A stretch of DNA of 64,000 nt from contig NC_073401.1 in NCBI RefSeq assembly GCF_028641065.1, positions 8,928,001-8,992,000 of the forward strand, written 5' to 3'. The notes below the pieces were generated by a model. The model was not told the origin of the DNA. It was given only the letters and a program-made list of their open reading frames with translations, and did not search any database. Each line of letters starts with the position of its first letter. The first letter of the stretch is position 1. Of the stretch, positions 76 through 58,925 are shown piece by piece. The translations under genes were made by a program, and so were the position numbers. The stretch is from Leucoraja erinacea. Taxonomy: Eukaryota.

Positions 76-2047
76 TAGAGCCAGGAAGTTTAGGCACTAA
101 AAAACCCTGAAATAGGCAAGCAAAAAGGCAAAATAAAATTACAAAAAAGGCACATTGACAAAAAAGGCATAACAAGGCATTTATTTCCATCACCAAAATA
201 TGGTTAAAAATGATAATATAAAGGTATACCACATTAAATGACCAAAGTTGCCTGGTTGCACATAATTACTAGCATTTTTCTCAAATTATCTGGTATTAAA
301 CTATGCTGTCAGACAGAATATGCTTCAGTTGTGAAAAACGTCTTTCTACCTCAGCTGAGGTCACTGGTGCATACCCGAAATAAGCTACAGACTCTATATT
401 CATGTCGATATCTTGTGCATTACAACCACCTTTGAGAACTTTAGCTATATTTTCTATTTCTTTAAAATCTTTGTTAGCTAAAATCACTCTCTCACATTTT
501 TCTTGTATGTCTTTACCTCCATCACCAGGAACTTTACGAATATTGTCAGTTACTTTGTTGAAAACCTGCAAGTTATTCACTAATATTTTGCCACGTTTCT
601 TAAGGGAAGTGATAGCTTGTGGGAAGTTTGCAAAATTGGAAGCAATAAATACAAGATCTTGGTGGAGGGACTTTTTCTGCATGATTTCACTGACGATCCT
701 GACCGCAGCAGATTCTTCTTCAAAATAGTTGACTATTTCCTTTATCTTTTCAAAATTTGCATCATAGTAGAATACAGTGGGGAGCCATGTATCCCACCTA
801 GTCAAAACGGGCTGAGGAGGTAGTGGAATCTCAGGTGCCATTTCCTTGAACAACTGCACACGTGACGGTGCTTTGAGGAAGATTTTATTGACATTGAAAT
901 CTAGGCGAACAACATTTTGAAACAAGCTACGTACGTGTTTAGCAATTCTTTGAAGTCCTTGAGCTAAGAATGTCAAATGCAATATTTTGGAGAATAAAAC
1001 TAAGTCACAAACAGAAGAACATTCTCGTGTTTTATACCTTCTGGCCAAAGTACAGCAAGTGAAGATATAAACAACTGATCAACAGTTGAGCTGTTTCACC
1101 TCCAATACTTCCGATGCCAACAAATACTCCTTTGATAGTGACCTGCCTCCAGTGTACCGATGACCACATTGGCAACATATCTCCCCACAGCACCGTCGTC
1201 TCGTCTATTGAGACTCATATTTTGTTGCATGCTACTTCATCTCTAATTTTCTGCACAACAATGTTGAAGTTGCTGTCAACATAATTTTTCCGTAATAATG
1301 ACTCGCTTGGTCTATGTTCCTCTGTCTATTTCTCTAAAAAACCTCCGAGAGGTTTGTTTTCCAATTTCCACAGTGGAATTCCAGCATCAATGAATGCCTT
1401 GCACAGATCACTCGAAAACTCAGATTTGTGACTGGAGCCAGCAGTAAATGTAGTGAGGAGACAAGCTTAGGTATTTCGCTTGGGTAGTCTACACCCCAGC
1501 GGTATCAACATTGACTTCTCCCATTTTAGATAGACCTTGTCTTCTCCCTCCTCCCCCTCCCACCTCTCCTTCTAGTCCTACAGTCTCTGCCTCTTCCTTT
1601 CTTTTTGCCGCGCCCCCCCCCACCCCATATCAGTCTGAAGCAGGGTCTCAACCCGAAACCTCGCCGATTCCTTCTTTCCATAGATGCTGCCTCACCCGCT
1701 GAGTTTCTCCAGCATTTTTTGTCTACCTTCGATTTTTCCAGCATCTGCAGTTCTTTCTTAAATAGTTCTTGGAGAAGACTGAACCAGCAGGCAGAGGCAC
1801 AATCAAATGAATGACCGATGGTGGCGCCCCCGATTTCGCCCTGGTGGTGGAGGTTTTCTTATAATAACATTAATATTAATATGTTAACATAGAAAACAGT
1901 ACAACTAGGTAAATAGCAAGACCTTTTAGCAAAACGGCAAAAAAAGGCTGATTTAGGCACTCGATCATGAAAAAGGCATGAAAAGGTATCCTGGTGAAAT
2001 CATCAAAAAAGGCATGAAAAGGTATTTATGGCAAAATCCTGGCTCTT
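76..2047 (-). mobile_element. Decayed hAT-superfamily DNA transposon with CGGBP-like transposase
   Basis: TIRs TAGAGCCAGGA (76-86) / TCCTGGCTCTT (2037-2047); exact 8-bp TSD GTAATCAG at 68-75 and 2048-2055; subterminal AAAAAGGCA repeats at both ends; ORF 296..1048(-) has PPQPVLTRWDTWL and APVTSAEVERRFS (hAT C-terminal motif); ~1290-1430(-) reads SEFSSDLCKAFIDAGIPLWKLENKPLGGFLEK*...PSESLLRKNYV, resembling CGGBP1. Confidence 0.85.
1471..1761 (+). mobile_element. Penelope-like element 3' end inserted in the hAT
   Basis: Encodes VFRLGSLHPSGINIDFSHFR* (same C-terminus as the GIY-YIG fragment at 15.8 kb), followed by the terminal repeat with a degenerate hammerhead core at ~1635-1662. Confidence 0.75.
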
Positions 2048-3321
2048 GTAATCAGGTATAGATGACTCAACTCTTTGATTGTTGTATCTCAACAGTAACA
2101 CCATTACATGATGCCCTGAATAAAATTAGCTGCCTCTACAATGACATAGCATCATACCTGAAATATTGTAAGCCTACATAAGAAAAGACCAAACTCTGGT
2201 GCTTTATTTTACGTGGAAAGTTTCCAAAAGAGCAACTTTTGAATAAGTAGAAGTAGAATATCATGGTGTTCAAATAGAATCCACACACTATCCTTGTTCC
2301 TCTCAAACAGAACTGCACATAATTGGAGGTTCTTTCTTTTGAAGTAACATGTTTATGTCAGAGGAAAATCCCATTCAATTAGACACATTCAAACAATTGC
2401 AGAAATGCCTGGCTCTGCATCTAAATCAGCTTTGGTTAGTTGTGAGGAAGGATTGGAGGTTTGTGGGTACTGATCAGAGTCGATCAGCAGATGGAAGGAT
2501 AGACCATGATCAGGCAAGGGGAAAATCAGTGAAGTGAGGAATAAAATCAATATTTGGATGAACAAGTTCATAATTGGAAAGGGTGACATGTGGATCTGGC
2601 AAATCACTTAAACTGTGATTCAATCAATATATTGTTTGGTAGTTTTACTTTTTTTTCCCAAAATAGAATCTATTCCTCAGTACATTGCTGCTTAACTCAA
2701 AATTCATATAATTCAATTGTATTTATACAGCATTCATCCTGCCTGTGTTGCTTAATTCAGATTAATTAATATTTCAACTTTCTTAAAGATTAATTTGAAT
2801 AAATAGGCATGGCTTAATCTCCACTTAATGTCTTCCTCTTCAAACTGTTTATTCAGTATTATTCATACATCAAATACAAACTTATGAAACTTTAATACTT
2901 CAAGAGGCTTGAAAAAATTGATGACTTTTCAAATAAAACATGGTAGTCCCCCCCCAGACAAAATTAGAAGAAAATTACACTCAGTAATACCATTAAGTAA
3001 AATATAAATACATAACAAAGATAAATCTACCAATTATGTAAAGCACAAATGAAAAGTTTAGACATACCATTTGTCTCAAATTCCCTAATGTAGAATGACT
3101 TTTTCAAAGGGCTGTGCCTAAATTGATCAGAGCAGACACAAGTTACATCTGTACATTCCATTGATGCAAAAGTGAAAATAAGGCACCTTGTACTTTATTA
3201 CAAAGTACCGGAAGCTCCAATTTATATAATTTGACTCCACAAAAAACAGGCAATCATATTAAAAACAAAACCTTGCAGTTTTTTTTTTTTACTGATTTGT
3301 GCATACAATTAGTCTATGTTT

Positions 3322-3631
3322 TAGTTTTAGAGATACAGCAAGGAAACAGGCCCTCCGGCCCACTGAGTCCGCGTTGCCCAGCACACTATCCCACACACTA
3401 GGGATAATTTATACATTCACCAAGCCAATTAACCTACAAACCTGTGCTTCTTTGGAATGTGGGAGGAAACCAAAGATCTTGGAGACCAAAGATCTTGGAG
3501 AAAACCCATGCGGTCACGGGGAGAATGTACAAATTCCATAGACAGGCACCCGTAGGCGGAATTGAACCTGGGTCTCCGGCGTTGCAAGCGCTGGAAGGCC
3601 GCAACTCTACTGCTGTGCCATGGTGGCCCCC
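3322..3631 (-). mobile_element. tRNA-derived V-SINE (HE1/MER6-like) with CR1-type tail
   Basis: tRNA-like head (B-box rc of GAATTGAACC), V-domain AAACCCATGCGGTCACGGGGAGAATGTACAAA, tail AAACAGGCCCTCCGGCCCAC; related copies at ~18600-18880(+), 33170-33400(-), 51515-51700(+). Confidence 0.7.
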
Positions 3632-4199
3632 AAAGGGGTGTGGATGTGCAGTTTACCAAGGAATCCTAGTACCTTGGAGTTAAGCTAAAGCATGTGAAAT
3701 CCTACTGCAATGTTGTACCTGTTAAATGAGTGAAACCACTTGCTCTGCCAACCATGCCAGAGTAATCAAGAAATGTGTTATACAATGACATATTTGGTTT
3801 TAGCTGCATGCTGCAAACTGCAAATTCTGCGAGTTCAACATAAACATGATTCTGGTATCAATTTGACACTAAAGAACTGTAGATAGCTACTTACAATACA
3901 AAATCCTTTTGCACATTAACTCAGAAAATGTTGCTTCTGTGCAATCTGGTTTATTTATTGATGCGGTTTAAGCAAGTGAAAACATAGTAGGTACTAGACT
4001 AAGTGGTCACCATGTTCACACAGGAGGGCTGGTCCCCCGACGCAATATTCCACCTCTCCACCAATTCCAATATTGGTGGCCAGTGGGGGGGGGGCTTTCT
4101 GGAGTGCTGGTATGGGTTCTTGGGGTGGCAGCTCAGTCCCTCAAATCTGATCTGCTGGCAGCTCACTTACGGCTGGACTCGTGACTATTCCTTGAAATT

Positions 4200-4490
4200 C
4201 CATTTCAAGCAGGGTGCAAGGCCGCCAAATTCAAGTGCAATTTCCAACCACTTCAAGCAGGGTGCAAGGCCACCGAATTCGTGCAGTTTCATACCACTTC
4301 AAGCTGGATCCAAGGCCACCAAATTCAAGTGCAGTTTCATACCACTTTCAGCAGGGTGCAAGGCCACCAAATTCAGTGCAGTTTCATACCACTTCAAGCA
4401 AGGAAATTCAAGTGCAGTTTCATTCCACCAAGCAGGGTGCAAGGCCACCAAATTCAAATGCAGCTTCATGCCATTTCATGCAGGGTGAAA
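4200..4490. repeat. ~48-bp tandem minisatellite (TTCAAGCAGGGTGCAAGGCCACCAAATTCAAGTGCAGTTTCATACCAC)
   Basis: About 6 degenerate copies; explains the repetitive ORFs at 4003-4711. Confidence 0.9.
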
Positions 4491-4859
4491 CCACCATAAA
4501 ACCACACAAAACACCAAACTCACTGTTCAGTTGCCATTCAGCGTGTTCAGTTGATTCACAGCACAGACAGAGTCATGACCTCTCCTTCCCCATCATGCAG
4601 AGACTAAGCCACACCCACACTTCTGGGTTTTATAACCCCACCCCCTCCCACCAGAAAAGGTGTGGCTTTCATGGCGCGATTGACAGGAGAGAGATTCTCA
4701 ACATTTTTTAAACACTAATAACACTTTTATTTTTCATTGATGGGAAGAATTCTCTGCACCTGCTCAGCGGAGGGGGGACTGAGTAAGATGGCCAAAAATC
4801 ACAGCCGTAAGTGGTAGCGTTTTATCTAAAATCAATATACAGTGCAAACAGGAAGTAAG

Positions 4860-5670
4860 TGCATTTGCAGTAGTGCCTTTCAACTTCAAGCCAAAGCACC
4901 CAAGCCACCATTTGCAGTAAGTAGTGCCTTTCAACGTCATGCCACCATTTGCAGTAAGTGGTGCCTTTCAACTTCAAGCAAAGCACCCAAGCCACCATTT
5001 GCAGTAAGAAGTGCCTTTCAACTTCAAGCCAAAGCACCCAAGCCACCATTTGCAGTAAGAAGTGCCTTTCAACTTCAAGCCAAAGCACCCAAGCCACCAT
5101 TTGCAGTAAGAAGTGCCTTTCAACTTCAAGCAAAGCACCCAAGCAACCATTTGCAGTAAGTAGTGCCTTTCAACTTCAAGCCAAAGCACCCAAGCCACCA
5201 TTTGCAGTAAGTAGTGCCTTTCAACTTGCAGTAGTAAGTGCCTTTGCAGTAAGTAGTGCCTTTCAACTTCAAGCCAAAGCACCCAAGCCACCATTTGCAG
5301 TAAGTGCCTTTCAACTTCAAGCCAAAGCACCCAAGCCACCATTTGCAGTAAGTAGTGCCTTTCAACTTCAAGCCAAAGCACCCAAGCCACCATTTGCAGT
5401 TAGTGCCTTTCAACTTCAAGCCAAAGCACCCAAGCCACCATTTGCAGTTAGTGCCTTTCAACTTCAAGCCAAAGCACCCAAGCCACCATTTGCTGGAAGT
5501 AGTGCCTTTCAACCTCAAGCCAAAGCACCCAAGCCACCGTGTGCAGTAAGTAGTGCCTTTCAACTTCAAGCAAAACACCCAAGCCACCATTTGCAGTAAG
5601 TAGTGCCTTTCAACTTTAAACCAAAGCACCCAAACAACCATTTGCAGGCAGTGTCTTTTTACTTCAAACA
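4860..5670. repeat. ~51-bp tandem minisatellite (TTTGCAGTAAGTAGTGCCTTTCAACTTCAAGCCAAAGCACCCAAGCCACCA)
   Basis: About 15 copies; 17-aa periodicity in the ORFs at 4822-5671. Confidence 0.95.
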
Positions 5671-6489
5671 AATCATATTTTCATTTTCAAACCACATTAA
5701 GGGGACTCACAGTTGTGTAGACATTTGTTCAGTGTTATTCAGAGCTCAGAGAGACGTTACCCTTGGCTTCGTCCATCTTGCAGAGACTGACTGAGGCACA
5801 CCACTTCCTGGTTTTATAGTCCCTCCCCCTCCCTCCAGAGAGATTGGTGATTTTTTTTAAAACATCAATATCTCTCTGATTTGTCATTGATGGGAAAAAT
5901 CCTCCGCACCCGTAAGGCGGAGGGGGGCTCTGAGCGAGCTGGCCAAAAATGACGGCCGTAGGTGGCTGCGTTCAGTCGGAAATCGCTGCACAGTGGGCCA
6001 AAAGCGGTCAAGATCAGAATTTTAGTAATATAGAAGATACTAGAACTGCAAGCAGAAAATAAAAGTACGTCTAATATTTTTTCATTGCAAGCTTGACTGT
6101 TCTCATCAGTTTAATATTGGTAATGTATACTGTCATGCACATTAAAGAATTCTACAGTTGGATTCATTCATCAAGGGGTTTCTTCTTGGCTAGTCAAATT
6201 CGTCTTCATCGATTCTTGATTTGAAAAAAAAATAATAGTACAACCAACCATAAATCCTGTCACGTGCGAACTTTCTCAAAAGCACCTGAAATTATATGAC
6301 AGAAATGGAACTACTTCAGGTTTTTTGTATCAGTAAAACTGGTCATAATTCCTATCTACAAATAAAACAGCACTCCTTTGGTTTTCGAAGTCTTTAGCTA
6401 GACAAATTACTCAGAAACTAAAATTTAGGAGTGAAGGGGCAGAGTCCAGGATGGTTTGCTCTCTCCCCATTGCAAGAATATCGTAAACT

Positions 6490-7800
6490 GGCTTCAGCAC
6501 ATTCTGAAGGGGGAGGGTGAGTAGCCAGTGGTCATTGGAGATACCACCGAGTGATCATTGTAGATAGGGATGAGATCCTGCAACAGGAGTTTAGGGAGCT
6601 ACGAAGCCATTTAAAAAGCAGGACCTCAAAAGTTGTAATCTCCGGATTGTTTCCACTGTCACAAACTACTGATTAGAGGAACAGAAGGATAGTTAAGATG
6701 AATGTGTGGCAGAAGGGATGGTGCAGGAAGATGGGTTTTAGGTTCCTGGATCAATGGGGCTATTTCTAGGGAAGGTGAAAACTGTACATGTCGGATGAGT
6801 CGCACCTAAACAGTTAATCAAGGAATGTATTGCTTCAGTATTGAGGGAGGACGTTCTAGAAAGTTCCTCAGAAAAGGCTGTAGAGCTGGCGATTAGGAAC
6901 AAAAGTCCTATTGTCACTTTTGGGAATGTATTGCAGGCCTCTTAACAGTTAACAGGAAACTGAGGAATAGATATGTGGGCAAACAACAGAGAAATGCAAC
7001 AAAAAATGGTTCTAGTACTAGGAGTCTAGTACTATGTGGTTTTAATATCAAGGCTCAGAGGGGATGTTTTTTTTAAGATATGTCCAGCTGTACAATATGT
7101 ACATAGACTCAAGAGGAAAACAGCATTGCTGGACCTCATTTTGAGCAACATATTTGGTCAAGTGGAGTGGTGTCAGTGGCGGAACATCTTAGAGATAGCA
7201 GCCACTTGGGCGACCTAATTGGCGAGTTTAGAAGAGTTTGAAAAAATGACATGTTGATGACCTCCTTCGACTATGTTGAAGACCAGCTTCAACTAGCTAC
7301 GACTAACTTCGGGAAAACTGGACACCGAATAGTGGAGAGTGAAGACGACCTCCTTCGATTATGATGACTATCTACAACTACCTTTGACTACCCTCGATTA
7401 CCTACGACTAACATGCCGACCTACTAGGACGAAACCTACGAGTAAAAAAAGTATCGATTTTTTTCCATGGCGACCTTTTTTTTCTCTTGTGCATTTTTTA
7501 ACATATCGAAAAAACCTAGCTGAGGCCTTGAGTACGCGGAGACCACTCTCGAGCATGAAGGAGAGATACGAAGACCTCCTACAACCTTGTGTCGACCGTG
7601 CTGCGAGTACGAGTCGAGGTCAAACTCGCCAGAACTCGCGGATTAGGTCGCCCAAGTAGGACAGGCCCTTAACTGTACATTTCAAAGTGGTTATATAAAA
7701 AGATTGGGATGAATAAGGAATAAAGATCTTAAATTAGGGGAAGACAAATTTCATTAAGCTAAGACAGGACCTAGCGAAGGTAAACCGGGAGCATCTACCT
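6490..7800 (+). mobile_element. Decayed CR1 LINE (ORF1 esterase/ORF2 endonuclease region), interrupted by a MITE
   Basis: CR1-type peptides (LKSRTSKVVISGL, NVWQKGWCRKMGFRFLD, ALLDLILSN) with stops and frameshifts. Confidence 0.65.
7202..7669. mobile_element. PIF/Harbinger-type MITE (left TIR partly lost)
   Basis: CCACTTGGGCGACCTAAT ... ATTAGGTCGCCCAAGTAGGACAGGCCCT followed by TAA; same family as 43784-43988. Confidence 0.7.
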
Positions 7801-8077
7801 ACAGGCGTCTACATAGAGCAGGAGCAGAATTAGGCCAATCAAGTCTACTCCACCATTTAATCATGGCTGATATATCTTTCCCTCTCAACTATATTATCCT
7901 GCCTTCTCCCCATAATACCCGACACCCTTACTAATCACAAATCTGTGAATCTCCGCCTTAAAAATATTAATTGACGGCCTCCACAACCATCTGTGGCAAT
8001 GAATTCCACTGATTCACCACCCTCTGACTAAAGAAATTCCTCATCATCTTTCTACAGGTACATCCTTTTATTCTGAG

Positions 8078-8908
8078 GCGCCGCCGGGCAACCTAAACAC
8101 CGAGTCATTTTGCCCGGCTTGGCAACCAGATACTGGTTTGTACTGAAGATAGACACAAAAAACTGGAGTAACTCCGCGGGTCAGGCAGCATCTCTGGAGA
8201 AAAGGAATGCAACATTTTGTGTCGGCGGTGACGGCTGTATTGCGTGGGAAAGATACTAGGTGCGGGGTGACGAAGGGTCGCAGCGAATGACGGCCCCCGA
8301 ACTGCGACAGCGGCTCCATCTCCTCCTCCTCCCGCACCCTGCCCGCCCTGATAAGGGCTGCTGCTTGCAAATCCGCTAACGGCGCATTTTCAAAACAAAC
8401 CCTCCCGCACGCCGAGGCCGGGAGGAGGGTGGGAGGGGGAGGCCTCGGCGTGCGGGAGGGTTTGTTTTGAAAGCGGTTATCGCTGTTAGCGGGTTTGCAA
8501 GCAGGGAGGAGGAGGAAGAGATGGAGCCGCTGTGCGGGACCCGTCATTCGCTCCGATACTTCTGAAGCAGCTGCACCATAGATCCTATAGCTATAGGATC
8601 TTTGAGCTGCACCGCTCGGCCCCACACCTTGCTGTTGGCTGGTGGAGGAGGGAGGCGGTGGCGAGGAAATCCCAACGGCCAAGGCAGCGGGGCGATGTTG
8701 TCCAAGGAGTGCTGACCCTCCTTCCTCCAGATCTCTCTCTCTCTCTTCCCCCCCCCCCCTTATCCTGGGACCCCTCCTCTACATCCAGCACTGATCCCCA
8801 TTCCCGCCTCCCCTGTGCTCCGCTCCCCATCTCCTCTTCCCCCCCCCCCCCCACCAATCTATTCATCCTGCGCTGATCACCTTATCCACCTCGCATTGAT
8901 TCTCCTGC

Positions 8909-8942
<34 letters not shown>

Positions 8943-9915
8943 ACACCCATCCATCCTGCACTGGTTCCCCAATTCACCCTGTACTTACCCCTTTCCCATC
9001 CATCCTGCACTTCTCCTCCATCCATCCTGTACTGATCCCCCATCCATCCTGTACTAATCCACACATTCATCCCGTACTGACCCACCCTCCATTTACCCTG
9101 CACCTTCCTCTCATTCATCCTGTAGTGATCCCCCATTCATCCTGCACAGACCCTCCGATCCACACTGTACTGATCCCTCCCCCATTCATCCTGCGCTGAT
9201 CTCCCCCCATCCATCCTGTACTGATCCTCCCATTCAAGAAGAATGGGGGGAACAGTCTGAAGAAAGGTCTCGACCCGAAACGTTGCCGATTTCCTTTGCT
9301 CCATAGATGCTGCCTCACCCGCTAAGTTTCTCCAGCACTTTTGTCTACCCCATCCACCCCCATTCAACATCACTGACATCCCCCGTGCTCTCCCCTCATA
9401 ATTTTACCGTTGACACTTTATTATAGAATTCATTTTAACGGCAAATCAATGCTCTTAATATGGAATATCAGTACTGTAGTTATTTAATGAGCAACATTCA
9501 TAACTATACGTACGCATATATGTTACCATGGTCCAGGATTTATTGACACAGGTTGATCATACGCTGAATAATTCAACGACATTTTTGTTTGGAAGTGGAA
9601 AGAACTAATAGAAATTGCATTAATTGCAATGTAGAAAGAGTTGAGATACTGTCTTTTAATTTTGCTGCATGTCATTGTGGGATATATCATGTCTTGATTG
9701 GTGACTGTTTCGTTTGTGACTTTATTTGAAGCAGAAATAATATCTAAATGCTTCATTGAGTATAATTCCGACTGGTTCGCACTTCGTCCGAGCACATTAT
9801 CGCACGCGTCATGCAAGCCATCTTAAATGACCACCTAAACTGTCATTTGGCAACCTAAAAAGCTGCCAAGTTTGCCCGGCGGGCAACAGGGAAAAAAAGT
9901 TAAGCAAGAGCCCTG
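8078..9915 (+). mobile_element. hAT-like non-autonomous element, copy 1 (5' TIR missing)
   Basis: Ends GAGCCCTG; 5' part, CCATTCATCCTGTACTGATC minisatellite, embedded Penelope unit and last ~450 bp are shared with 45821-47795. Confidence 0.7.
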
Positions 9916-10251: not shown

Positions 10252-11903
10252 GCTCATTGAGTTTTAAGGCATTTGTTTGAACTTGAGCAGATAGGATGTG
10301 TCTATACACTTCAGAATTCATTCTGCTACTATCATCAGCAGTTGTATCATCAATGAAGATAAGTGAGCCAGTACCTTCAGCAGCCATACATGCCCAGGCC
10401 ATAACATCCCCACCACCGTGTTTCACAGATGAGGTGGTACTGTATGCTTTGGATCTTGGACAGTTCCTCTCTCCTCCATACTTTGCTCTTGCCATCACTC
10501 TGCTATAAGTTAATCTTCATCTCAACTGTCCAAAACTGTGGTTGCTCTTTTAAGCACTTCTTGGCAAACTGTAACCTGGCAATTCTATTTTTGCAGCTAA
10601 CCAGTCGTTTGTGTCTTGCAGCGTAGCCTCTGTATTTCTGCTGCACTCGTGTACAGCGCTGCTGAGTACGCTGCCCCCGCATGGTGCAGCAGCGCTCATA
10701 CTAGCAAGCTAGACACCATGCAGATCATCACCGGGCTGCCTATGCCCTACTCTGACGGATCTTCTGCCGTTGGTCGCAGGTATCACATCCGCCAAGCTTC
10801 GCAGAGAGTACCTAAACATAAACATCACTTATAGGCTGGTGTGCAAGGCCCGATTGGATGCCAAACCCAGGACACACAGCAACTGGGACCTCAATGCCTG
10901 TCATCTCATTGCCCCTTCTCCCATCACGCAGCAACCCTCTGTGGCTCCGGTTTCAACACAATAAGAGCATGGAGAACCAGCTGGGAACAGACTTTGCGAC
11001 CTCTGCAATTTACTGTTGCACCGAACACCACAGCCCCACCCGGCATGGACCTGCCCCACAAAGAGTGGGTCGCTCTGAACCGGCTCCATATAGGGGTCAG
11101 CCAGTTCAACGGTAACATGCATTGCTGGGGGCTGCGTTCATCAGCAGCCTGCATGTGTGGAGCAGACCAGCAAACAGCTCAGCATGTCATTTTCAACTGC
11201 GCTGTCCTCCGCCCTCCTGGTGGAGGGGGTAACCTCACGGCCCTCGACAACAGCACATGGAACTGGCTACAGTGCCTGGAGGGCGTTACATAACTTCTGC
11301 TGCCTCAAACGCAAAAAAAGTCTGTATTTCTGTTCATGAAGTCTTCTGCGGACAGTGGTCATTGACAAATGACCACTTGGCCTGCCAGTCCTTTTGCGAT
11401 TAGTAAGCTCACCAGTGTTATATTTCTTCTTAATGATGTTCCAAACAGTTCATTTTGGTAAGCCTAAGGTTTAGCTGACGTCTCGAACAGTTTTATTCAT
11501 GTTTCTCAGTCTCATAATGGCTTCTTTGACTTTCATTGGCACAACTTTGGTCCTCATGTTGCAATAAAAGTTGCCAAAGGTGATGGAAAGACAGGAGGAA
11601 AGACTACGTGCTGAGAGTTCTCTTATACCTGCATTAAGGAGGCAATTACAAACTCCTGTGAAGCCATGTGTCCCAAACATTATGGTGCCCTAAAATGGGG
11701 GGGGGGGGGGGGGGGGACTCTGTATAAACAGTACTGTAATTTCTACATGGTGAAAACAAAATGTATGAAAATGGGCATTATTAAAATCAGACAATGTGCA
11801 CTTTAACCACGTTATTTTTTTCTATTATAAATCTCAAATTGTATAGTACAGAGGCAAATAAATAAGTGATGGGTCTTTGTCCCAAACATTATGGGGGACA
11901 CTG
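10252..11903 (-). mobile_element. Truncated Tc1 transposon (same family as 34929-36527), interrupted by a LINE fragment
   Basis: SVKHGGGDVMAWACMAAEGTG and MRTKVVPMKVKEAIMRL peptides; one TIR ending ...GGACACTG|TA at 11903. Confidence 0.9.
10641..11320 (+). mobile_element. 5'-truncated non-LTR retrotransposon (RT thumb plus C-terminal CCHC knuckle; Ingi/Vingi-like, tentative)
   Basis: LVYSAAEYAAPAW and WVALNRL...CMCG...QTAQHVIFNC motifs; 12-bp TSD TCTGTATTTCTG at 10629-10640 and 11321-11332; tail CAAACGCAAAAAAAG. Confidence 0.8.
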
Positions 11904-14602
11904 TAGATGATCTCATTGAAACCTATGAGACCCTCATGGGCCATGATAGAGTCGAGGTTGAGTTTTTCCCCACCAGAGGGCGAATCTTGATTAAGGAAAC
12001 AAAACAGCATTGACATCATTAGGAGGGATACATTGCTGCCAGTGCTTTTTCTTGACTTTGCTTTATAGCCCATTATAGCATGCAATCAATGGATGGCTGT
12101 GGTTAGTCTGGGACTCTAACTTGGTCTGGAACATTCTCTAGCCTGAAACTTACTACAATCTGCATGATTTTCCCCTTATTCTTTGGTTAGTTTTATCAAT
12201 GAAAGCCCAGGAGTCTTTTATAAAACAATGACTATTTTGAAAAGAGTTTGTCATATATTTGTCAAAATCTCTTTTTCTCCCATCATGTATGCAAAGGGAT
12301 GAATGATATCAGAGTGTCCTTGCCTATGTGTTGATACAAATTATATTGTCTACAATTTTGCTATTTAGTAACACAAGGATGAGGTCAAAACAACTGTTGG
12401 CAAATCTTAATCAGCTAAGTAAAACTGTTACAATTGGAGGAATGTTCAAACCTTCAGAATGATTAATGTACAATATTAGAGGAACATGGCATGATCTAAA
12501 AGCACTTCATGGGCACCTCTATATATTTACTAATACCAAGCACAATATCCATTTAATCGCTCTATCTTTTCCGATATCCGTTACCCTCCAGCTCTTCCTT
12601 CAATCATCCTATAATTCCTCTCTCCACTTCTACCTCAACAACTAAGCAGTTTGTGACCTGATATCAGCCATGAAATACTAGAATACTAGATATAACACAC
12701 GATTACAAGAAAAAAAATATATAACACAAGATTACAAGAAACAAAAGGAGTTGGAGTAAGCCATCTAGTTACTCCCCCCCCCCCTCCACTTCCCACACCA
12801 TTCAATATGAACACGGATACTTTGCCCCATGCTGAACTCTCACCTGTTCCCCGAATTCCAATTTTTTTGCAATTTACCTTGAGTAGGGAACTCAGATATA
12901 CATAACATCCTGCAAGGAGAAATTCCTACAATTTTAAGTTTAATCTCCATTTGTAATTTCGAGAGAAAATGGACTCCCATTTCCAGTCCAACCAAAAACA
13001 TTTCCAGTTTAGTTGGAGTATTAAACATACCATTGCAGCCGTATGTTTAATACTCCATCCAAACAAGGAAATTATGCTAAAATAGACCAGTCTGAAGCAT
13101 GTTCCCAGTCTAGACTTCACTGAGCCTATCCCCTTTACCAAACAATGAAACAAGAAACACAGGTGAAGGCCCATGTCTGAATGAGTGACTTGTGCTGTTC
13201 GGAGACTACAGATGCACAAATGAAGATCATGCAACTGGCAACCAGAAGTGCATTGCATGAAGAAATAAAACATAGAAATGTAATCATGTGGTGCATGTCA
13301 ACATTGAGTTATATGACATAATTTCTATTTTCTTCCTGCACTCAGTCCAGCTCCCAGCAGATTTTACTTGGCAGGAAAACCACCAATGTTCCTCTGCTGA
13401 TGCCTCGGGTTACCTTTGCAATTGAGTCCTAGTATCATCATCAGCAGAGTCCAATTTGCATAGCTAAAGAAAGATGGATGTCCAAGCCATCACAATTTTA
13501 AATTGCATTTGGACTGATTGGAAACCAGTGTGTTTGACCCCCAGTTAATTTTCACTGCCTCTCGGTCATAGTTTTTGACAGTGAAGGTTAAAAATGTAGC
13601 TCACAGGCTCAGGATGAAACTGGTAAATGATTCAAAGGCTTGTTCCCAGCTTTCCACATCCACTCCAAAAATGCACTCTTATTTCAATTTTAGAAGAATA
13701 CATTACATTTTCTAAACTATCATTTTGCAATTTCCAAAAGGACTGTTAATTGATATTTGAAAATAGTCAATCTATTTTTGTTTTGAGATTTTAAACTTGA
13801 AAATGAGAATAAAAGCATCAAAATATGAATGATGCAGAATAGGAAATGAGAAAATCACAAGAAAAATGATAAAAGACTGTCCGCTTATTACTCATTGCTT
13901 TCATGCATATACTTTCATGCTTGCTCATCTCCATTGGCGACTGGCCCCTAAAATTCTTCTAAGATAAAATTTCAATCATTTCATGGCCTTGTCCCTCCTT
14001 ATCTGACAGCTTCCTCTAGTCAGACAGCCTGTCAACAATGCTACATCTCTACATCATCTATAAATGTCTTTGTCATAACACTGACAACTGACTTCCATTG
14101 ACTAAGCTTTCAGGTGTTCCATCCCCAAGTATTACCATTTTCCACTTTTCTCTGTCTTTCTCTTCCCACTTTGATTAAGCCATTAGTCACTCATCCTAGT
14201 ATGTTCAGCTTTATCTTGCTGTCACATTTTGTGCAATTATGCCTTGATGCAGTGTCCAGATGGTTTTTTTTACATGAAAACTACTACAATACATTTTCAA
14301 AAAGAAGCATATGGATTATCGAATGGGATGACAGGCAAGACTACAATCTGAGAGGAAATTATATTTAGACATAAAGACTTTATAGGAAGATACCAAAGAG
14401 TTTAAAGCAGAGAAACCTGGGAGATAAAATATATAATTTCTTGAAAAATTAGCTATAGTCCAATAAAACCATTAAAATAGCGAATGCAATTTACAGTTTT
14501 ATAAACAGAAATATCTATACAAAAAAAAGCACCCCAACTGAAATTGGACAAAGCATGAGAGATAGGATATGAGAATTACTGAAAACAGACGAGATTCTGT
14601 TA

Positions 14603-27392: not shown

Positions 27393-27523
27393 GTATTTTG
27401 TTTAAAATTAGAAGTGTTCTTGTCTCTATTTGTACAATAATTATGATATTTAAGTAAAATGGTCTGAGTAATAACTGCCAGGAATAGGTTATGAAATACA
27501 TTAACATTGTTGTGTTCTACCAG

Positions 27524-44370: not shown

Positions 44371-44398
44371 CTGAAGAAGGGTCCCGACCTGAAACGTC
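44371..44398 (+). ncRNA. Minimal hammerhead ribozyme core in a Penelope terminal-repeat unit
   Basis: CTGAAGA-A-GGGT-CCCG-ACCT-GAAAC-GTC. Confidence 0.6.
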
Positions 44399-44469
44399 AC
44401 CTATCTATCCCGGTCCTAGTCCAAGAGACCTGCTGTACCCAGAGTAAAACTGCATTCGTGTCAGTGCAC

Positions 44470-45340: not shown

Positions 45341-45820
45341 AATAAGATCCTGAAACTCAATTAGCCAGGTACATGGGTAGGAAAGAATTAGACGAATATG
45401 GGCCAAACGCAGGCAGGTGGGACTAGTTGGGGCACCTGGTCGGCATGGACAAGATCATCTTGAAGATGGGCCAAAGGGCCTGTTTCCGTGCTGTATGTCT
45501 ATTAACATCCAGCCCCCGTCATGGTGATGAGGGGTAGGGGGGAGGCTCCATAAAGAAGAGAGACATAAAAAGCTGGAGTAACTCAGTGGGACAGGCAGCA
45601 TCTCTGAAGAGTAGGAATGGGTGATGTTTGGGGTCGAGACCTTTCTTCAGACTGGTTAGGGATAAGGGGAACGAGAGTTATGGACGATGGTGTAGAGAGA
45701 TAAAGAACAATGAATGAGAGATGTGCTAAAAAAGTAACGATGATAAAGGAAACAGGTAATTGTTAGCGGCGGTAGACAGAAATGCTGGAGAAACTCAGTG
45801 GGTGAGGCAGCCTCTTTGGA

Positions 45821-47795
45821 CAGGGCTCGAAATTAGCAGTTGCCCAGGTGCCAATGACCACCCAAAGTGCCGCCGGGCAACCTTAATGCCGGCTTGGCAC
45901 TGCAGATACTGCATATAGGGTGATTTCACGAAAGGTCACTGGAGCGTAGATCCGCACCCACGTGACCGAAAATCTCAAGTGGAGGACATGCTAGACATCC
46001 GGTACATGTTAGTGGATGGGAAAACACGCACTTTCCCACCCGTTAAAAACATAGAAAACGGCCAGGTTTTGATCTGCAATTTATTGTGCTAGTCGGGGTG
46101 ACCGTGAGGCACAGCTACCTAGATTTACAGTAAAAAAAAGATAGAAACTAAGGTAAATTAAAGAGGGAGCTGAAGGTGCCAATCCAGCGGAAGTCAATAA
46201 TGCCTCACTTTTGATGAAATTCAGCGAGCAAACGCGATAATTCCCGATATTTTGGACCTTTAAATCTCCACGGCAAATGTCCGCTGTTCACTTCCGCTGG
46301 ATTGGCACCATTCATCCTGTACTGTTCCCCCATTCATCCTGCACTGATCACCCATTCATCCTGCACTGATTCTCCATTCATCCTGTAGCGATCCCCTCCC
46401 ATTCATCCTGTAGCAACCCCCCCCCCCATTCATCCTGTAGCGATCCCCCCATTCCTACAGCGATCCCCCCCCCCCCCCCATTCATCCTGTAATGATCCCT
46501 CCATTCATCCCGCACAGACCCTCCGATCCACACTGTACTGAGCCACCCCCCCATTCATCCTGTACTGATCCTCCCATTCAAACCGGTACTGATCCGCCCA
46601 TTCATCCTGCGCTGATCCCCCACCCCCCCCCCATTCATCCTGTACTGACCCCCCATTCAGAAGAATCAGTCTGAAGAAAGGTCTCGACCCGAAACGTTGC
46701 CTATTTCCTTCGCGCCATAGATGCTGCCTCTCCAGTATTTTTGTCTAACCCCCATTCATCCCATACTGATCCCCCCATCCATCCTGCATCTATCCTGCAC
46801 AGATCCCCCGCCATCCATTCTATACTGATCCCCCCCCATTCAACCCCTCTGACATCCCCCGCGCTCACCCCTCACAATTTTACCTACTCCAACACTCACT
46901 AATTAGCCTGCCCCAATCCATCCATTCTGCACCGATTGCCTTCTCAACCCCCACCCCATCTATCCATCCCGCAGTGATTCACCCCCCCCCCCCCCCCTCC
47001 CCCCCCCCCCCAACCCTACTCCGCTGGGAATGTCTTCAGAGCGAACATTGACTATGTTTGATACCGGAATGCAATCAAATGTGTTTTAATTCCCAATGTT
47101 GTTTTAATAAAGATTAAATTGTGAACTCATGCAACATTAAAACCGCAATGTTGGATTGCCACTGCTACTGTTGACACGTTATTACAGAATTCATTTTAAC
47201 TGCTATTATCATAAAATGCCTTTTAGAAATTTCCTTGCAACCTGTATAGTTTGTTGTGGATAAATTATGTGGGAAGCGAGAGTGTTTCTGTACCAATAGC
47301 AATAACGACCCATGCTATGGTCATGTCATGATAATTTTCGGTCCTTCACAGAAAGTATGCTTGCATCAATCTATAGTGTGCATGGTTAAGCATATATGTT
47401 ACCATAGTCCAGGATTTATTGACACAGGTTGATCATACGCTGAATAATCCAACCACATTTTTGTTTAGAAATGGAAAGAAATAATAGAAATTGCATTAAT
47501 TGCAATGTGTAAAAAGAGTTGAGATAGTGTATTATAATTTTGCTGCATGTCATTGTGGTATATATATCATGTCTTGATTGGTGAATATGTTTAGTTTGTG
47601 ACTTTATTTCAAGCAGAAATAATATGTGAATGCTTCATTGAGCATAATTCCGAATGGTAACTTCGTCCGAGCACATTATTGCACGCGTCATGCAAGCCAT
47701 CTTAAATGACCACCTAAACTGTCATTTGGCAACCTAAAAAGCTGTCAAGGATGTCCGGCTGGCAACAGGGGGTAAAAAGTTAAGTGAGAGCCCTG
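45821..47795 (+). mobile_element. hAT-like non-autonomous element, copy 2 (complete), with nested cargo
   Basis: TIR CAGGGCTC / GAGCCCTG; splits a Penelope unit with apparent 5-bp duplication TTGGA/ATGGA; contains a GGG/TA-type transposon fragment (45918-46310), a minisatellite and a Penelope unit. Confidence 0.8.
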
Positions 47796-47815
47796 ATGGA
47801 GCGAAGGAAATACGC

Positions 47816-47843
47816 AACGTTTCGGGCCGAAACCCTTCTTCAG
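47816..47843 (-). ncRNA. Minimal hammerhead ribozyme core (subfamily B)
   Basis: rc reads CTGAAGA-A-GGGT-TTCG-GCCC-GAAAC-GTT. Confidence 0.6.
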
Positions 47844-48356
47844 ACTGATCCATTGTTAGCTGTTTGTTAGGTGAAACGAGAAGAGTCCGTAACCGAAACG
47901 CATTCCCTCCTTAGACGCCACCATTTTGTGTGGGAAATGAAGTGGAAATTAAGTTATTTCACAAAAATATTACTTCCTGTTTCTAAACTTGCTTATTAAC
48001 ATTAAGGATTAAGACATTAAACAAAATTGCAAATATTCTGGAACTAATTTTATATTTGAGTTTTAATGCAGGTGGTTGTGTCAAGGGGCAGAAGGTATTA
48101 ATTACTAAGATATCTGCTTCAAATTTATGAATTGGCCGAAATGTTGTGTATTCTGTACTTTGTTTGTAATGTCCCCAATCAAACAATTGAGAAGATTTTA
48201 TCTTTCTTTATGCAGCAAGTATCCCCGATTGCCATTGTGCATGTGGGTTTATTTGGAAGATTATAGACTGGGCTTTCTGCACCGGATCCTTCACCAGATG
48301 TTTGTTTCTGTCTTGAATGCCATAAGATATTGATTCATTTGTATTTACTTCCACAG

Positions 48357-48483
48357 CACAACATCAAATCTTTACCAAGCTTTCCTTCAGCTGATTGCCC
48401 ATCTGATGTGGAACCTGACACCAGAGAGATGGTTCGGGAACAGAATAAAAAGAAGAAGAAGTCAGGAGGTTTCCAGTCTATGG
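48357..48483 (+). CDS. DDX54: DDX54 exon 2
   Basis: LPSFP...[28 protein letters not shown]; AG/GT boundaries. Confidence 0.95.
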
Positions 48484-50090: not shown

Positions 50091-50837
50091 GAAAATGATT
50101 TGGAAAAAACATAGAATTGATCGTGGCAGAAATTTCTACATATTATAAGCCACAAAGCTAAAAATGTACATTTGGAATGCTATTGTGCTACCCTTGACAG
50201 AAAGCTCATACAGCAGAGATACTTTTCATTATGAATATAACTAAAGAATGTATTGATATGGAGATGGGGCAAGAAATAAGTGAGAGTCTAAGAAATTGAA
50301 TGAATAGATATGGCAGACAAGCACAGCACAAGTTCTGGAATAACTTAGTGGTTCAAATAGCATCTGTGGAGGGAATGGACAGACAACATATCAGGCCGGG
50401 ACCTTCTTGTGAGTCTGAAGAAGGGTTCTGACCTGAAACATCATCTGTCCATTTCCAGACCCACTGAGATGGGTTCAGGGATCCCATTGACCCACCTTGG
50501 TTGCTGTTTTGCTCAGGATTCCAGCATTTTCCGTTTCTTGGGTCTCCATCTGGCAGAAAGGCAGACAAGTTGGAGTTTCAAAAGATTATACATTTTTTAA
50601 ACGATAAAAAATATATATCTTTCAAGCAAGGGGCTCCTTTTGCCACCATGTTAAAAATTATTTATATATATTAAAAAAGTCTGTTAAACATTCTCATCAT
50701 TGCTGTAGTCATTGCAGAGACATGCCACTGGTAAAATGTATGTACAACTTACCAGATAGCAGTGAATTATTGCTGTTATTGTTGATAGTACAAAATGGTT
50801 ATCTCAAAATTAATAATATTACTTTACTTTACCAAAG

Positions 50838-52760: not shown

Positions 52761-52863
52761 GGACTGGTGCATTTGTTCTTCTGGAAGTGCTATTATCCTA
52801 ATGGGCCATCTTCTGTGTAATAATGTTTGAATGTTTGAGGTAAAAGCTTGTTTTCTCTTTCAG

Positions 52864-53052
52864 GCAATCCCAGTGATACTGGATGGCAAGGATGTTGTTG
52901 CCATGGCCAGGACGGGCAGCGGTAAAACTGCAGCTTTTCTCATTCCTTTGTTTGAGCAGCTGAAAGTGCATCATTCCCAGACAGGTGCTAGAGCTTTAAT
53001 TCTTACCCCAACGAGAGAGCTTGCATTACAAACCATGAAGTTCACAAAAGAG
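52864..53052 (+). CDS. DDX54: DDX54 exon 4 (motifs I, Ia)
   Basis: [16 protein letters not shown]; 189 bp, AG/GT. Confidence 0.97.
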
Positions 53053-55274: not shown

Positions 55275-57487
55275 GTAAAAATGATGAGCTATATCCAGTA
55301 CCTATTGTAATTGCTCAGCTTTACAGCTGACTTTGGACTAAATAGTGGAAATTAGTTTTTAAGAAAAATAAAGGACTAACTTTCCAGAATATCCCAACAT
55401 GTTATATTCAATGGAGTACTTTTGATTTGTTGTCGCTCTTGTAATTTGCATGCAAGTTCTTCAGGGACAGCTGTGAGGTAAACAACCGGGTCAAGTTGTA
55501 GATGTAAATTGAGGGACAACTATTGGCTTCGCTGTTTGGAAAACTTTATTCATATGGAGACTTAAGAAGGCAAAGTTGGCCTTGGGTGCATCAGAAAAAT
55601 AACACATTCTAAACTGCAAAACTTTCACAATATTGAATCAAAATGTTGGTGTAGATTGTGGGCTAGAATGGGTACTGAAATTAGAGGTGAAAGTAACCAC
55701 TATAAAATTCAGATAATCTGAATCACCTGAGATATTTTCCAGCCAAGGATTTGATTTGATTCAATTTATTGTCATTGCACTTTTCAGTGCAACAAAATGG
55801 TTTAGCCTGCAGTCATAACATAGAATAAATAACAAACATTCAACACAGTTTAAAGTCCCAAAGTCATTGTCTCTTCCCTCCTTGCTCTCCCTCTGCGCTG
55901 AGGCAATCCAAGCCTCCGATGTTGCGACCCCGCCGGGTGATGGTAAGTAAGTCCCGCGGCTGAATCCGTGCTCCGCAAACGGGCCGGTTCAAACTCCGTG
56001 GCCCGGGGCGGTCGAAGCTGCCGAAGCTGCCGCCCTCCAGTCCAGCGGACGCAGCTGTAGTTGCGGGAGCTCCGGAAACAGAACTCGAGCTCCCGATGAT
56101 GACGTCCACTGGCCTGCGGCCGAGCCTCCGAGGCTCCAAAGTCGGGTCGGAAGTTGGGTCGCCCCGCAACCACAGCCCCGAAGTCGGCCAGCCTCGTGTT
56201 GGTAAGTCCTGGCTGGCTCTGCCTCCGCAGCCTCGAGGTCGGTCGCAGTTGGAGGCCCCCAGCTCCGCGATAGGCCTCAGCGCAGACGGACACGGAGACG
56301 GGGGATACGGCAGGAAAGGTTGCATCCCCCCCGAAGGAAGAGTCAAAAAAACATGTTACCACACACACCCCCCCACACATACACAACTAAATAAACCGAA
56401 ATAAACAGGACAAGAGAAAACAAAAAACAGAAAAGTCAAACGGACTGCAGGCGAGGCGCAGCTGCAAGGCAGCGCCGCCACTTCCAGACTGGAGTGTGCT
56501 TGTGTAGCTCATATCTGAATTTGATACAAATTTCTTGCTATTACATAATTTCTCTGTTTTACAAACTACACCTCAACATTTTAAAGATAATAAAAGATAG
56601 ACTATTATTAATAATAATTTTGTTTTGCATATGTCCATTGTATTGATGAATAATTATGCACACTTGAATTATGTATAAGAAGATTTTTTTAACCTGCAAA
56701 GGGGTATTAATTGCTGGCTTCACTATCCAAATTGCTTATCTTGCATCCCAACCCAGAACATGAGTGCGACTGGCTGCATGTGGACTGTCAGGCATGTTAT
56801 GTACATGTGATTAAATAGTCATTTATTACATTCTACCATCTAACGTCATATTTAAGCACTAACTATTGGTTTTGCTCCTGGTTTTATATTGATAATAGTT
56901 TTTTATCGAATTAAACCAAAAGTCTCGAAAGTTCTGGGAGTACAGGTACATGATTCCCTGAAAGTGGCGAATTAAATGAGACAGGGTAATGAAGAAGGCG
57001 TTTGGCATGCTTGGCTTAATTGGCAAAGATATTTAATTGAAAAGTTGGAACATCATAATGCAGCTGTATAAATTGTTGATGAAAACATCTTTGGAATACT
57101 GTGTGCAGTTCCGCCTGCCCAGCTATAGGAAGGATGTCATTAAGTTTGAAATGGTACAGAAGAGATACACCAGGATATTACCTGGACTTACAGGCCTGAG
57201 CAATGGGGGAGAGATTGGATAGGCCGGGACTTGTTTCTTTGGGGGAGGGGAGGATATGGATATGAAGAGCTTGGAGGGATATGGGCCAAATACAGGCAAA
57301 TGGAACTAGTATGGCTTGCCAAAACTGTCAAAGTAGGCCGAAGGACCTGTTTCCATCGAAGGTAGACACAAAATGCTGGAGTAACTCAGTGGGACAAGCA
57401 GCATCTCTGGAGAGAAGGAATGGGTAGACAAAAATGCAGGAGAAACTCAGCAGGTGAGGCAGCATCTATGGAGCGAAGGAAATAGGC

Positions 57488-57515
57488 AACGTTTCGGGTC
57501 GAAACCCTTCTTCAG
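57488..57515 (-). ncRNA. Minimal hammerhead ribozyme core (subfamily B)
   Basis: rc reads CTGAAGA-A-GGGT-TTCG-ACCC-GAAAC-GTT. Confidence 0.62.
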
Positions 57516-58925
57516 ACTGAAGGAATGGGTGACATTTTGGGTCGAGACTCTTCTTCAGACCTGATTTTATCTTCTCCCCAAACAGAACTGTCTCGGCAGA
57601 CCCATTTCTGCTTGTTCATGTCATCCACAAAGGACCTGTTTCCATGCTACATAGCTCTATGACACGAGAGGTTTTAAAATTTTAGATTGTCTCCAGTTTT
57701 ATCCTTTTATTTAGTTCTTTTGGTCATCTAGGTTTTTTCCAGTTCAATTCTTGTTCTATGGGAGACCAATAAATTATGTTTTAAACTTGTAAATGTGATT
57801 ATTTCAAGGTTATTCTATGGGATTCAGGGACATGTTATTTTTGCCCTTTGGGAACCCAAGTCATTATCTTGCTTAAAATTGCATATATATAAGCAAGGAG
57901 TGGATTATTAAATTGCTAAGATTGTATTTGTATTTTTTAATTATTCTCTGCGTTACCAGTGTAACCAAAGAGACCATCATTTATTACCCATTTCTAGTTG
58001 ACACTTGAGAAGCTGGTGGTGGACCTTCAATGGCAAGCATTCATCTGATGAGGAAGGTAGTTCCACAGAATCATTTCATTATGCTTGGTGGCTTTCCCAT
58101 GCACTTGCTCCATCCTTCCAAATAATGAGGACTGCGAGTTTAGGAATTGCTTCTGAAGCAACAGTGACAACAATATTTTTGCTTGCATCTTGCAAGTGAG
58201 ATGCAGCGCAGAGATGATACATCAACGGAATGTCTAGAGTGCGGGTTTAAGTTAGCAAATGGGATGTTGAAGTGCTTTGTCCTGGATGCCATTGAGTTTA
58301 GGATGAATGACTCAGTACTGAATTGGCACTGAAGCAGCAAAGAACTCACAAGCTTGTTAATGGTACACTGGTAGAAAAGTATTGCAATGATTTCTTCTAA
58401 GTTATGAATCAGCACAGGAACAGGCCATGATGTGCCAAACATGATACCAGGGTAAGATGCCAGATAGTCTCATCTGCTGCACATTCCCCCATTCTCCGCA
58501 TATCCATGTGCCTTTCTAAAAGCATCTTAAACACCACTATCTGCAGTGCCAGTACATTCCAGGCACCCACTACCCTCTGTAAACAGAAACTCAGCCCATA
58601 ATTTTGCACCTATCACCTTTAGATATGACTTCCAATCTTTGTCATTTGCACAGTAGAAAAAAAGGTTATGACTTTCTACGCTATCTCTGCCTATTCCATT
58701 GAGAAAATTAAAACTGTTGTTCATAGGATTATTACTGCTCTAAGGTTAAATTGAGTAACTGTCCTCACAGTTTGCTTAACATACAGGTATTGATAAATGG
58801 CTCTATTTGTAAATGAACCCGTCAGACTGATCTGACGTACTTGTAAACCAAAAGAGGATGTGGATAATTGAACTATTTGACGCTGGTGCCCAACTGAAAG
58901 CTCCTGTAAATAATTTCCCTTCCAG

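Follow-up and report, generated by a model that had tools for sequence, protein, structure and literature searches.

Short Insertions of a Hammerhead-Bearing Penelope-Like Pseudo-LTR in the Skate Leucoraja erinacea Are Consistent with Copying of Uncleaved RNA from Two Start Sites

Introduction

Minimal hammerhead ribozymes have been described in the Penelope-like elements (PLEs) of metazoans (Cervera and de la Pena 2014, PMC4209133). In this study, we analysed 64,000 nt of the skate Leucoraja erinacea (assembly GCF_028641065.1, contig NC_073401.1, positions 8,928,001–8,992,000; hereafter the window), which contains many copies of a short repeat unit with a minimal hammerhead core. The units are short insertions of the ribozyme-bearing pseudo-long terminal repeat (pseudo-LTR) of a PLE. 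They were probably made from uncleaved RNA, copied from two start sites 35 nt apart, and the putative 5′-end of this RNA lies shortly upstream of the core. Cleavage of host pre-mRNA by the units is unlikely.

Like the motifs of PMC4209133, the skate units have a CUGANGA/GAAA/UH core, an extra base between positions 9 and 10.1, a G10.1-C11.1 pair and a palindromic 15.2–16.2 step. In both cases, most motifs are dispersed as single copies of truncated elements, and opposite-strand pairs occur. The skate motif differs in its helix II of 4 bp and its helix I of only 2 bp; a 2-bp helix I has been described for D. virilis in the same paper. We estimate approximately 60,000 intact motifs in the skate genome, versus 4,000–9,000 reported for coelacanth and Xenopus (PMC4209133). 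No shark or skate term was found in the two searchable supplementary files of that paper, which do not include file 1.

Insertions of endonuclease-positive (EN+) PLEs (PMC3846280, PMC8557442) share with the skate copies an inverted, 5′-truncated pseudo-LTR, a one-sided tail of 30–40 bp and a target duplication. Junction palindromes and an initiator-like (Inr-like) motif in the pseudo-LTR are also common to both. The skate copies differ in that most are arms of 100–135 nt and that they number approximately 1 million; hundreds of copies were counted here for the one-tail rule and for the fixed edge at the 5′ side. The closest biochemical system is the Poseidon element PAc of the green anole (Frangieh et al. 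2024, PMC11167929). In vitro, cutting and extension take place on both DNA strands, the tail lies between two start sites within the RNA, uncut RNA is the main template, and the hammerhead needs the element's protein. The skate footprint resembles PAc in the two start sites bounding the tail, the extension of both strands and the uncleaved template. Unlike PAc, the skate element has a Neptune/Nematis-type linker, and its open reading frame (ORF) starts after the tail, not inside stem II. The PAc evidence is biochemical, whereas the skate evidence is genomic only.

Non-LTR retrozymes, as defined in PMC7229834 and bioRxiv 10.64898/2026.07.22.740005, likewise carry a type I hammerhead, lack ORFs and derive from Penelope-like pseudo-LTRs. 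The skate family differs from them in having a minimal rather than a canonical ribozyme and, within the 1.2 Mb sampled, in lacking tandem arrays whose units each contain a core. Its units run from just before the core to the tail, not from cleavage site to cleavage site. No publication on this family in cartilaginous fish and no count of the one-tail rule was found in a search that did not extend to most subscription papers, Repbase or the supplements of the bioRxiv retrozyme study, which include one cartilaginous fish and may describe the family. The components and the layout are already in print; the new part is the quantitative insertion statistics.

Results

The window was searched with a profile built from eight of its copies (E ≤ 1), which gave 36 unit matches and none in the reversed window used as control. 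A preliminary description of the window had listed hammerhead cores at 16 places. The unit was present at all 16, but the one at 21840(−) lacks the CUGANGA half and has its 5′-end at +8 (numbering relative to core C3, with the cleavage site at +27/+28). The minus-strand positions of that description mark the cleavage-site end; the corresponding C3 positions are 15595, 28174, 45650, 47843, 57515 and 57557. The genome sample consisted of 120 random 10-kb stretches, 1.2 Mb of the 2.19-Gb genome. It contained 535 unit matches versus 0 in its reversal, which extrapolates to approximately 977,000 unit pieces. At this rate 28.5 units are expected in the window (P(≥36) = 0.10), so the window is typical of the genome and is not specially seeded with units, as had been suggested. 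Because a less strict E cut-off was applied to the window than to the genome sample, any window excess is overstated. The strict minimal-hammerhead descriptor (core, extra base, helix II of 4–8 bp, palindromic helix III, helix I of 2 bp) passed 33 times in the 1.2 Mb and 0 times in each of five dinucleotide shuffles. Only three window copies passed it: 44371(+), 47843(−) and 57515(−). An Rfam scan of the window gave no hammerhead match at E ≤ 10; the minimal form is not modelled in Rfam.

The proposed link to GIY-YIG/Penelope elements was confirmed. An 844-aa frame with reverse transcriptase (RT) and endonuclease (EN) from another locus matched window positions 16148–15792 (E 4e-17) and 1393–1527 (E 2e-4) in tblastn. 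In 30 loci fetched with an endonuclease remnant, the frame end is followed by a pyrimidine-rich untranslated region (UTR) of ~190 nt and then by the unit. A protein search gave copies with open frames of up to 906 aa, and 20 of these long-ORF copies were analysed. In one of the 20, locus L182, two units in direct orientation flank the ORF region; the frames of this copy shift, and its first ATG lies ~35 nt after the tail. Because the unit follows the endonuclease stop and UTR and precedes the ORF start, it is a pseudo-LTR, the 3′-end of one copy and the 5′ leader of the next. Both long frames examined matched RVT_1 (E 6e-6 to 8e-6) and GIY-YIG (E 0.007–0.008) below the Pfam cut-off, in line with the single ORF of EN+ PLEs, in which the RT is joined to a C-terminal GIY-YIG endonuclease with CCHH. 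ORF pieces gave 88 matches in the 1.2 Mb, versus the 535 of the unit. A search of a protein atlas gave transposon-like clusters only.

L182 and L022 carry a CX4CxxC linker and cysteines between the LIY and YIG motifs. A CX2-5CxxC linker between RT and EN is a feature of Neptune/Nematis (PMC8557442), and the element would, judged by the linker only, be a Neptune-type PLE. A reading frame through the unit itself was considered and rejected; it is not common to the subfamilies, and the ORF begins after the tail. Ahead of the RT, the N-terminal region contains a Pro/Ala-rich, low-complexity repeat whose copy number varies (L182:4200–5100, L181, L191).

The insertion footprint has two fixed boundaries. 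The 3′-ends of the units in the genome sample form two peaks 35 nt apart, which define an optional tail. The 5′ flank of the 183 copies with an intact 5′ part was unique in 88, an inverted partner in 66, a shared upstream stretch in 26 and a direct neighbour in three. The 5′-ends of subfamilies A and B were measured with each subfamily's own UTR as reference. In subfamily A (n = 99), 36 ends fell in −8..+1 (3.6 per nt) and 37 in +2..+23, with 1 in −200..−21 and 3 in +24..+31. In subfamily B (n = 55), the counts were 11 in −8..+1, 7 in −200..−21 and 2 in +24..+31. Among 605 pooled 3′-complete copies, 211 had their 5′-end in −5..0. The wall of 5′-ends at −8..+1 may mark the transcription start, and we take the TCAGT found there to be an Inr-like motif. 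No excess of 5′-ends occurred at the cleavage site in the 605 copies (16 in +27..+29 versus 48 in 12 neighbouring positions). Reverse transcription passed +27/+28 and halted before the core; therefore, the template RNA was uncut. A fossil of in vivo cleavage, with 5′-ends at +28, was accordingly rejected, as none appeared in the subfamily, pair or pooled end counts. The CAG that precedes the core was also considered as a 3′ splice site and rejected: 88 of the 183 upstream flanks are unique, and no shared spliced exon was seen among the 45 listed.

Before pairs were counted, 18 of the 535 matches were removed (low score or edge), leaving 517 copies. The sample contained 85 head-to-head pairs (169 of the 517 copies) versus 7 tail-to-tail. 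Both arms belonged to the same subfamily in 72 of the 85, against 16 expected. The tail count omitted 14 pairs without both 3′-ends; among the remaining 71, exactly one tail was present in 58, both in 2 and none in 11 (Fisher p 1e-8). The rule was repeated in an independent gene set of 24 pairs (one tail in 22, both in 0, none in 2). A target duplication of 8–18 nt frames 32 of 63 pairs, compared with 1.0 in shuffles. These counts show that a head-to-head pair is one insertion and carries a single tail. Duplications of at least 8 nt also frame 13 of 114 solo units, versus 0.65 in shuffles. The arm 5′-ends are more than 10 nt apart in 37 of the 85 pairs, and 39 junctions contain at least two inserted letters. 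Repeated junctions occur at two palindromes, five times at −5/−5 and five times at +10/+10. The long copies behave in the same way. At least 7 of the 20 long ORF copies have an inverted arm of 0.46–2.2 kb, truncated independently of the main arm. The arm 5′-ends differ by 0.6–2.5 kb in five simple long copies, and one tail was found in 6/6 scoreable long inverted-arm copies.

Subfamilies were defined by k-means (k = 8) on 432 near-complete units. One cluster was an alignment artefact, leaving seven usable clusters whose members are 71–94% alike to the consensus, in agreement with the earlier claim of at least two subfamilies. The GUU-type is the youngest. Clusters 2, 4 and 5 lie directly behind ORF remnants and have the same diagnostic letters there as in their solo units; clusters 0, 1, 3 and 6 showed no ORF tie in the loci examined.

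The CUGANGA, GAAA and UH core is invariant in all seven consensuses. As the preliminary description had anticipated, it is better kept than its flanks: 0 of 11 core positions vary versus 27 of 62 downstream (p 0.005). Within the ribozyme, the consensuses differ at N7, at H17, in loop II and at pairs whose partners still match. The master elements thus retained the ribozyme. As a possible sign of selection on cores once inserted, non-CpG divergence was compared; it was 5.5% in the core versus 8.2% downstream and 10.3% in stem II, a comparison confounded by alignment anchoring and base composition. Helix II contains the G10.1-C11.1 pair, with the extra base between 9 and 10.1. Its pairing is kept across variants, as claimed: in 20 selected copies, 91% of the cells of this helix pair, and there is a U-A/U·G change. 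Over all helices, 85% of the cells pair in these copies, and helix I has one double change, G-C to U-A. Covariation gave a divided result: the score exceeded 500 of 500 shuffles, but double-change pairs were not above control, and the score is inflated by the relatedness of the hand-picked copies. The palindromic loopless helix III was also recovered: five of the seven consensuses have CG, and the two oldest have CA, by CpG decay. Instead of the 4–5 bp of this ribozyme class, helix I comprises 2 bp, with a third pair in 5 of the 20 copies. In all four contexts, the best two-strand fold is predicted to be more stable than the active dimer, by 14, 14, 22 and 32 kcal/mol. The suggested pairing in trans or in tandem for cleavage is thus disfavoured for the bare dimer, as far as folding energies predict.

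Host genes were located by RNA contigs and Pfam matches. The RNA evidence consisted of presumed-RNA contigs and a ~6% portion of one raw poly(A) data set from a related organism; poly(A) reads on the repeat derive from all copies, and the expression of a single copy cannot be told from them. Exons were found for a TPCN1-like gene (first exon 17961–18081, −), an IQ-motif gene (22911–23686, 26742–26975 and 27521–27897, +), a RITA-family gene (33814–34458 and 39673–39978, −) and a DEAD helicase (45006–45267, 48355–48482 and 52862–53050, +). The names IQCD, DDX54 and TPCN1 are presumed from synteny; Pfam itself gives IQ, DEAD and RITA only. A weak contig and a GT donor point to a first IQCD exon near 18250–18340. 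Two GC-rich head-to-head gene starts were seen: 17961–18340 serves the TPCN1-like (−) and IQ-motif (+) genes, and 44900–45267 likely the RITA-family gene (−) with the DEAD helicase (+).

Four of the 36 window matches were removed before arms, strands and ends were annotated. Element sequence remains at two places. On the plus strand, a Penelope-like GIY-YIG endonuclease frame ends at 1465–1530 (final ~20 codons with the stop), followed by the pyrimidine-rich 3′ UTR of the element (1531–1628) and a unit with tail (1629–1761; C3 at 1635, A9 and helix III mutated), the same layout as in ORF-bearing loci. On the minus strand, a frameshifted GIY-YIG endonuclease remnant (15792–16148) is joined by a 3′ UTR from endonuclease stop to core (15602–15791) to a unit without tail (15503–15601; C3 15595). 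This unit is mutated in stem II and helix III and lies sense in intron 1 of the TPCN1-like gene.

Three copies are descriptor-intact. The minimal hammerhead at 44367–44406 (+, C3 44371) has a G·U at 10.1–11.1, is 3′-truncated and lies 5′ of the first exon of the DEAD helicase. The GUU-type hammerhead at 47796–47849 (−, C3 47843) is antisense in DDX54 intron 1. The third is a younger unit (57426–57518, C3 57515) that interrupts an older one at 57361–57560 (−), antisense in DDX54. Its insertion is flanked by a 12-bp target duplication (57530–57519 and 57425–57414); the two cores at 57488/57530 come from nesting of one unit within another and not from tandem repetition.

The remaining units outside head-to-head pairs are not descriptor-intact. 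The plus-strand units at 9251–9349 (core letters intact, antisense to TPCN1-like intron 1) and 46665–46747 (sense in DDX54 intron 1) both have an A10.1·C11.1 mismatch in stem II. The same ~22-nt C-rich minisatellite (8760–9250 and 46290–46660) precedes these two cluster-5 units, which suggests co-mobilisation or a shared target. The solo unit at 38789–38883 (+), antisense in an intron of the RITA-family gene, has a CpG-decayed helix III, and the solo unit at 22734–22816 (+) has lost G12 and lies sense in the putative IQCD intron 1. On the minus strand, the unit at 28082–28179 has C3 and A9 mutated and its 3′-end adjoins an N stretch, and the solo unit at 45558–45655 is mutated in G12 and stem II and is antisense in DDX54 intron 1. 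Units without core are found on the minus strand at 8148–8224 (5′-truncated), 45771–45823 and 63505–63562 (with tail). Eroded units lie at 21274–21334 (+, with tail), 43145–43229 (−) and 43520–43595 (−).

Seven head-to-head pairs were annotated. The pair at 18694–18830 has a short arm (18694–18725, −) and a long arm with tail (18730–18799, +); its damaged core, with C3 at 18731, lies sense in the putative IQCD intron 1. Both arms are core-less at 20520–20645, with the tail on the minus arm, and at 44228–44335. The pair at 21791–22000 (arms 21791–21861, −, and 21863–21961, +) has a tail on the plus arm only and is predicted to fold as a single long hairpin (z −5.7). An old pair of a CUGAUGA-type subfamily lies at 28201–28349. 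The pair at 37600–37785 consists of 37631–37696 (−, with tail) and 37704–37785 (+, no tail). The pair at 50329–50459 (50329–50408, −, and 50411–50459, +; C3 50415) has a broken helix III and is predicted to fold back.

The sense copies at 18731 and 22736 (IQCD) and at 46671 and 50415 (DDX54) had been proposed to cleave pre-mRNA. Their intronic position was upheld, but all four are damaged, and cleavage is not supported: helix I is absent from 18731, where stem II also has a T·C mismatch, 22736 lacks G12, 46671 carries the A10.1·C11.1 mismatch, and helix III of 50415 is non-complementary. Of the intact window copies, 47843 and 57515 lie antisense in the helicase gene, and 44371 precedes its first exon. 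Intronic strand bias was measured in 390 kb inside four spectrin-repeat genes, with gene strand from Pfam exon matches. The 165 copies divided into 79 sense and 86 antisense, so no antisense bias was found. Core-spanning solo units were 36 sense to 31 antisense and core-less solo units 9 to 19 (p 0.09). Strict-intact intronic copies were 10 sense to 4 antisense, the opposite of what selection against cutting copies would predict; there was no sense depletion. No pile-up was seen among the listed read ends at the three intact cleavage sites, a weak test because these poly(A) reads come from a related organism and from all copies.

Several other features were seen in the window. A hepatitis delta virus (HDV)-like ribozyme candidate at 43718–43781 (−) matched the Rfam CPEB3 model with 29.7 bits (E 8e-4), below gathering; its predicted fold has a 7-bp P2-like helix and apparently no P4. 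Locus L089 contains two near-identical copies of the motif, so it is part of another repeat, possibly a retrotransposon 5′-end. An element of ~1.5 kb is present in two inverted copies (10255–11906 and 34926–35967, 83–92% complementary), with a DDE_3 transposase match at 35999–36274; these are likely Tc1-type DNA transposons. A nested inverted repeat at 18997–19653 (arms 108 and 178 nt), similar to a miniature inverted-repeat transposable element, gives spurious microRNA matches. A ~48–51 nt tandem repeat at 4823–5703 has open frames on both strands. Short perfect hairpins at 32972–33134 (arms 80 nt) and 40849–40925 (~37 nt) are unrelated to the unit.

Discussion

The footprint fits a mechanism close to that of the anole element. 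The element transcript would start near −3 and have one copy of the unit at each end. The element enzyme would cut both DNA strands and use the uncleaved element RNA as template. A dimeric enzyme may prime each DNA end at a different start site. Priming on the 5′ unit copy would give run-off products of 100 or 135 nt, and priming on the 3′ unit copy would give long 5′-truncated copies such as 1465–1761 and 15503–16148. Both DNA ends would be extended and the cDNA ends joined, often by microhomology, giving a head-to-head pair with one tail. The ribozyme may work, if at all, only with element protein on multi-unit transcripts. An internal promoter has been demonstrated for Drosophila Penelope (PMC2377424), and an Inr-like motif has been noted in a pseudo-LTR (PMC3846280).

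Several observations weigh against this account. The start near −3 is an indirect reading of the 5′-end wall and the Inr-like TCAGT, and the commonest 5′-end of subfamily B is +10 (11 of 55), at a palindrome and not at the wall. An extra G before the 5′ edge, as a cap would template, was present in 15 of 29 copies at first but was not significant in solo units (7 of 18, p 0.21), and this candidate was rejected. Four of the seven clusters showed no ORF tie in the loci examined. Just 13 of the 114 solo units keep a duplication; many may be remains of pairs or longer copies. Junctions overlap by at least 3 nt (microhomology) in 25 of the 85 pairs, and paired arms share 90 non-consensus letters versus 40 by chance, which also fits fold-back copying or later conversion. 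A mild intron bias may also exist, as the 95% interval of the sense share of core-spanning solo units is 0.41–0.66.

The junction overlaps, the repeats at the two palindromes and the shared private letters would also fit a self-priming origin of the pairs, in which the strand folds back at palindromes, perhaps with an antisense template; this model has been proposed for rotifer elements (PMC3846280). We consider this improbable in the skate. The arm 5′-ends are often far apart, by kilobases in the long copies, nearly half of the junctions contain inserted letters, and fold-back alone leaves the single tail of each pair unexplained. It is somewhat less improbable, though still unlikely, that the solo units are a non-autonomous family similar to short interspersed elements (SINEs), with their own internal promoter from −3 and both start sites, copied in trans by the element protein. 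The fixed 5′ edge and two fixed 3′-ends, the excess of units over ORF pieces, the Drosophila promoter (PMC2377424) and the clusters without ORF tie would suit such a family. However, clusters 2, 4 and 5 stand behind ORF remnants with the diagnostic letters of the solo units. The long ORF copies share the inverted arm and the one-tail rule; therefore, a separate SINE-like mechanism is not needed. The Rfam scan gave no tRNA, 5S or 7SL match over the units, although no dedicated tRNA scan was made.

The preliminary description had favoured a further possibility, in which sense copies, pairing in trans or in tandem, form hammerheads that cleave the pre-mRNA of the host, and in which the family propagates as a retrozyme through circular RNA. 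This now appears highly improbable. It could draw on the invariant core, the helix I change from G-C to U-A, the large number of descriptor-intact copies estimated genome-wide and the abundance of the repeat in poly(A) reads of both strands. Against it stand the damage in the four named sense copies, the lack of a sense deficit in introns, the 2-bp helix I, the unfavourable energy of the predicted active dimer and the weak read-end test. The published minimal hammerheads showed no cutting as monomers and poor cutting as dimers (PMC4209133). Retrozyme-like amplification found no support either. Two cores occur in only 1 of 43 adjacent same-strand pairs in the 1.2 Mb, the window's own double core is nested, and therefore the family does not conform to the retrozyme definition in this sample; three subfamilies lie directly behind ORF remnants. 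Tandem arrays with a complete hammerhead per unit were absent from the 1.2 Mb, a sample that arrays clustered at telomeres or centromeres would escape. Loci L128 and L147 contain local tandem arrays of 40–65 nt core-less unit pieces, apparently minisatellite birth from a pseudo-LTR.

Returning to insertion from uncleaved RNA, a more specific proposal can be made tentatively, at slightly below even confidence. The approximately 1 million footprints may record an in vivo step in which an enzyme dimer primes the two DNA ends at different RNA sites, on RNA that begins three bases before the core and is uncut. The core might then also serve as an internal promoter, and its conservation would not have to reflect cleavage.

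Conclusions

For the integration of PLEs and the role of their hammerhead, the skate genome offers hundreds of thousands of countable insertions. The gain is quantitative and mechanistic, not a new system. On the reading preferred here, the footprints would tie each start site known in vitro to one DNA end, indicate that the copied RNA was uncleaved, and predict the start site to the base. The head-to-head pairs are predicted to fold into long hairpins that bury the core. The likelier effect on the host would be long hairpin RNA from intronic head-to-head pairs, not ribozyme cuts.

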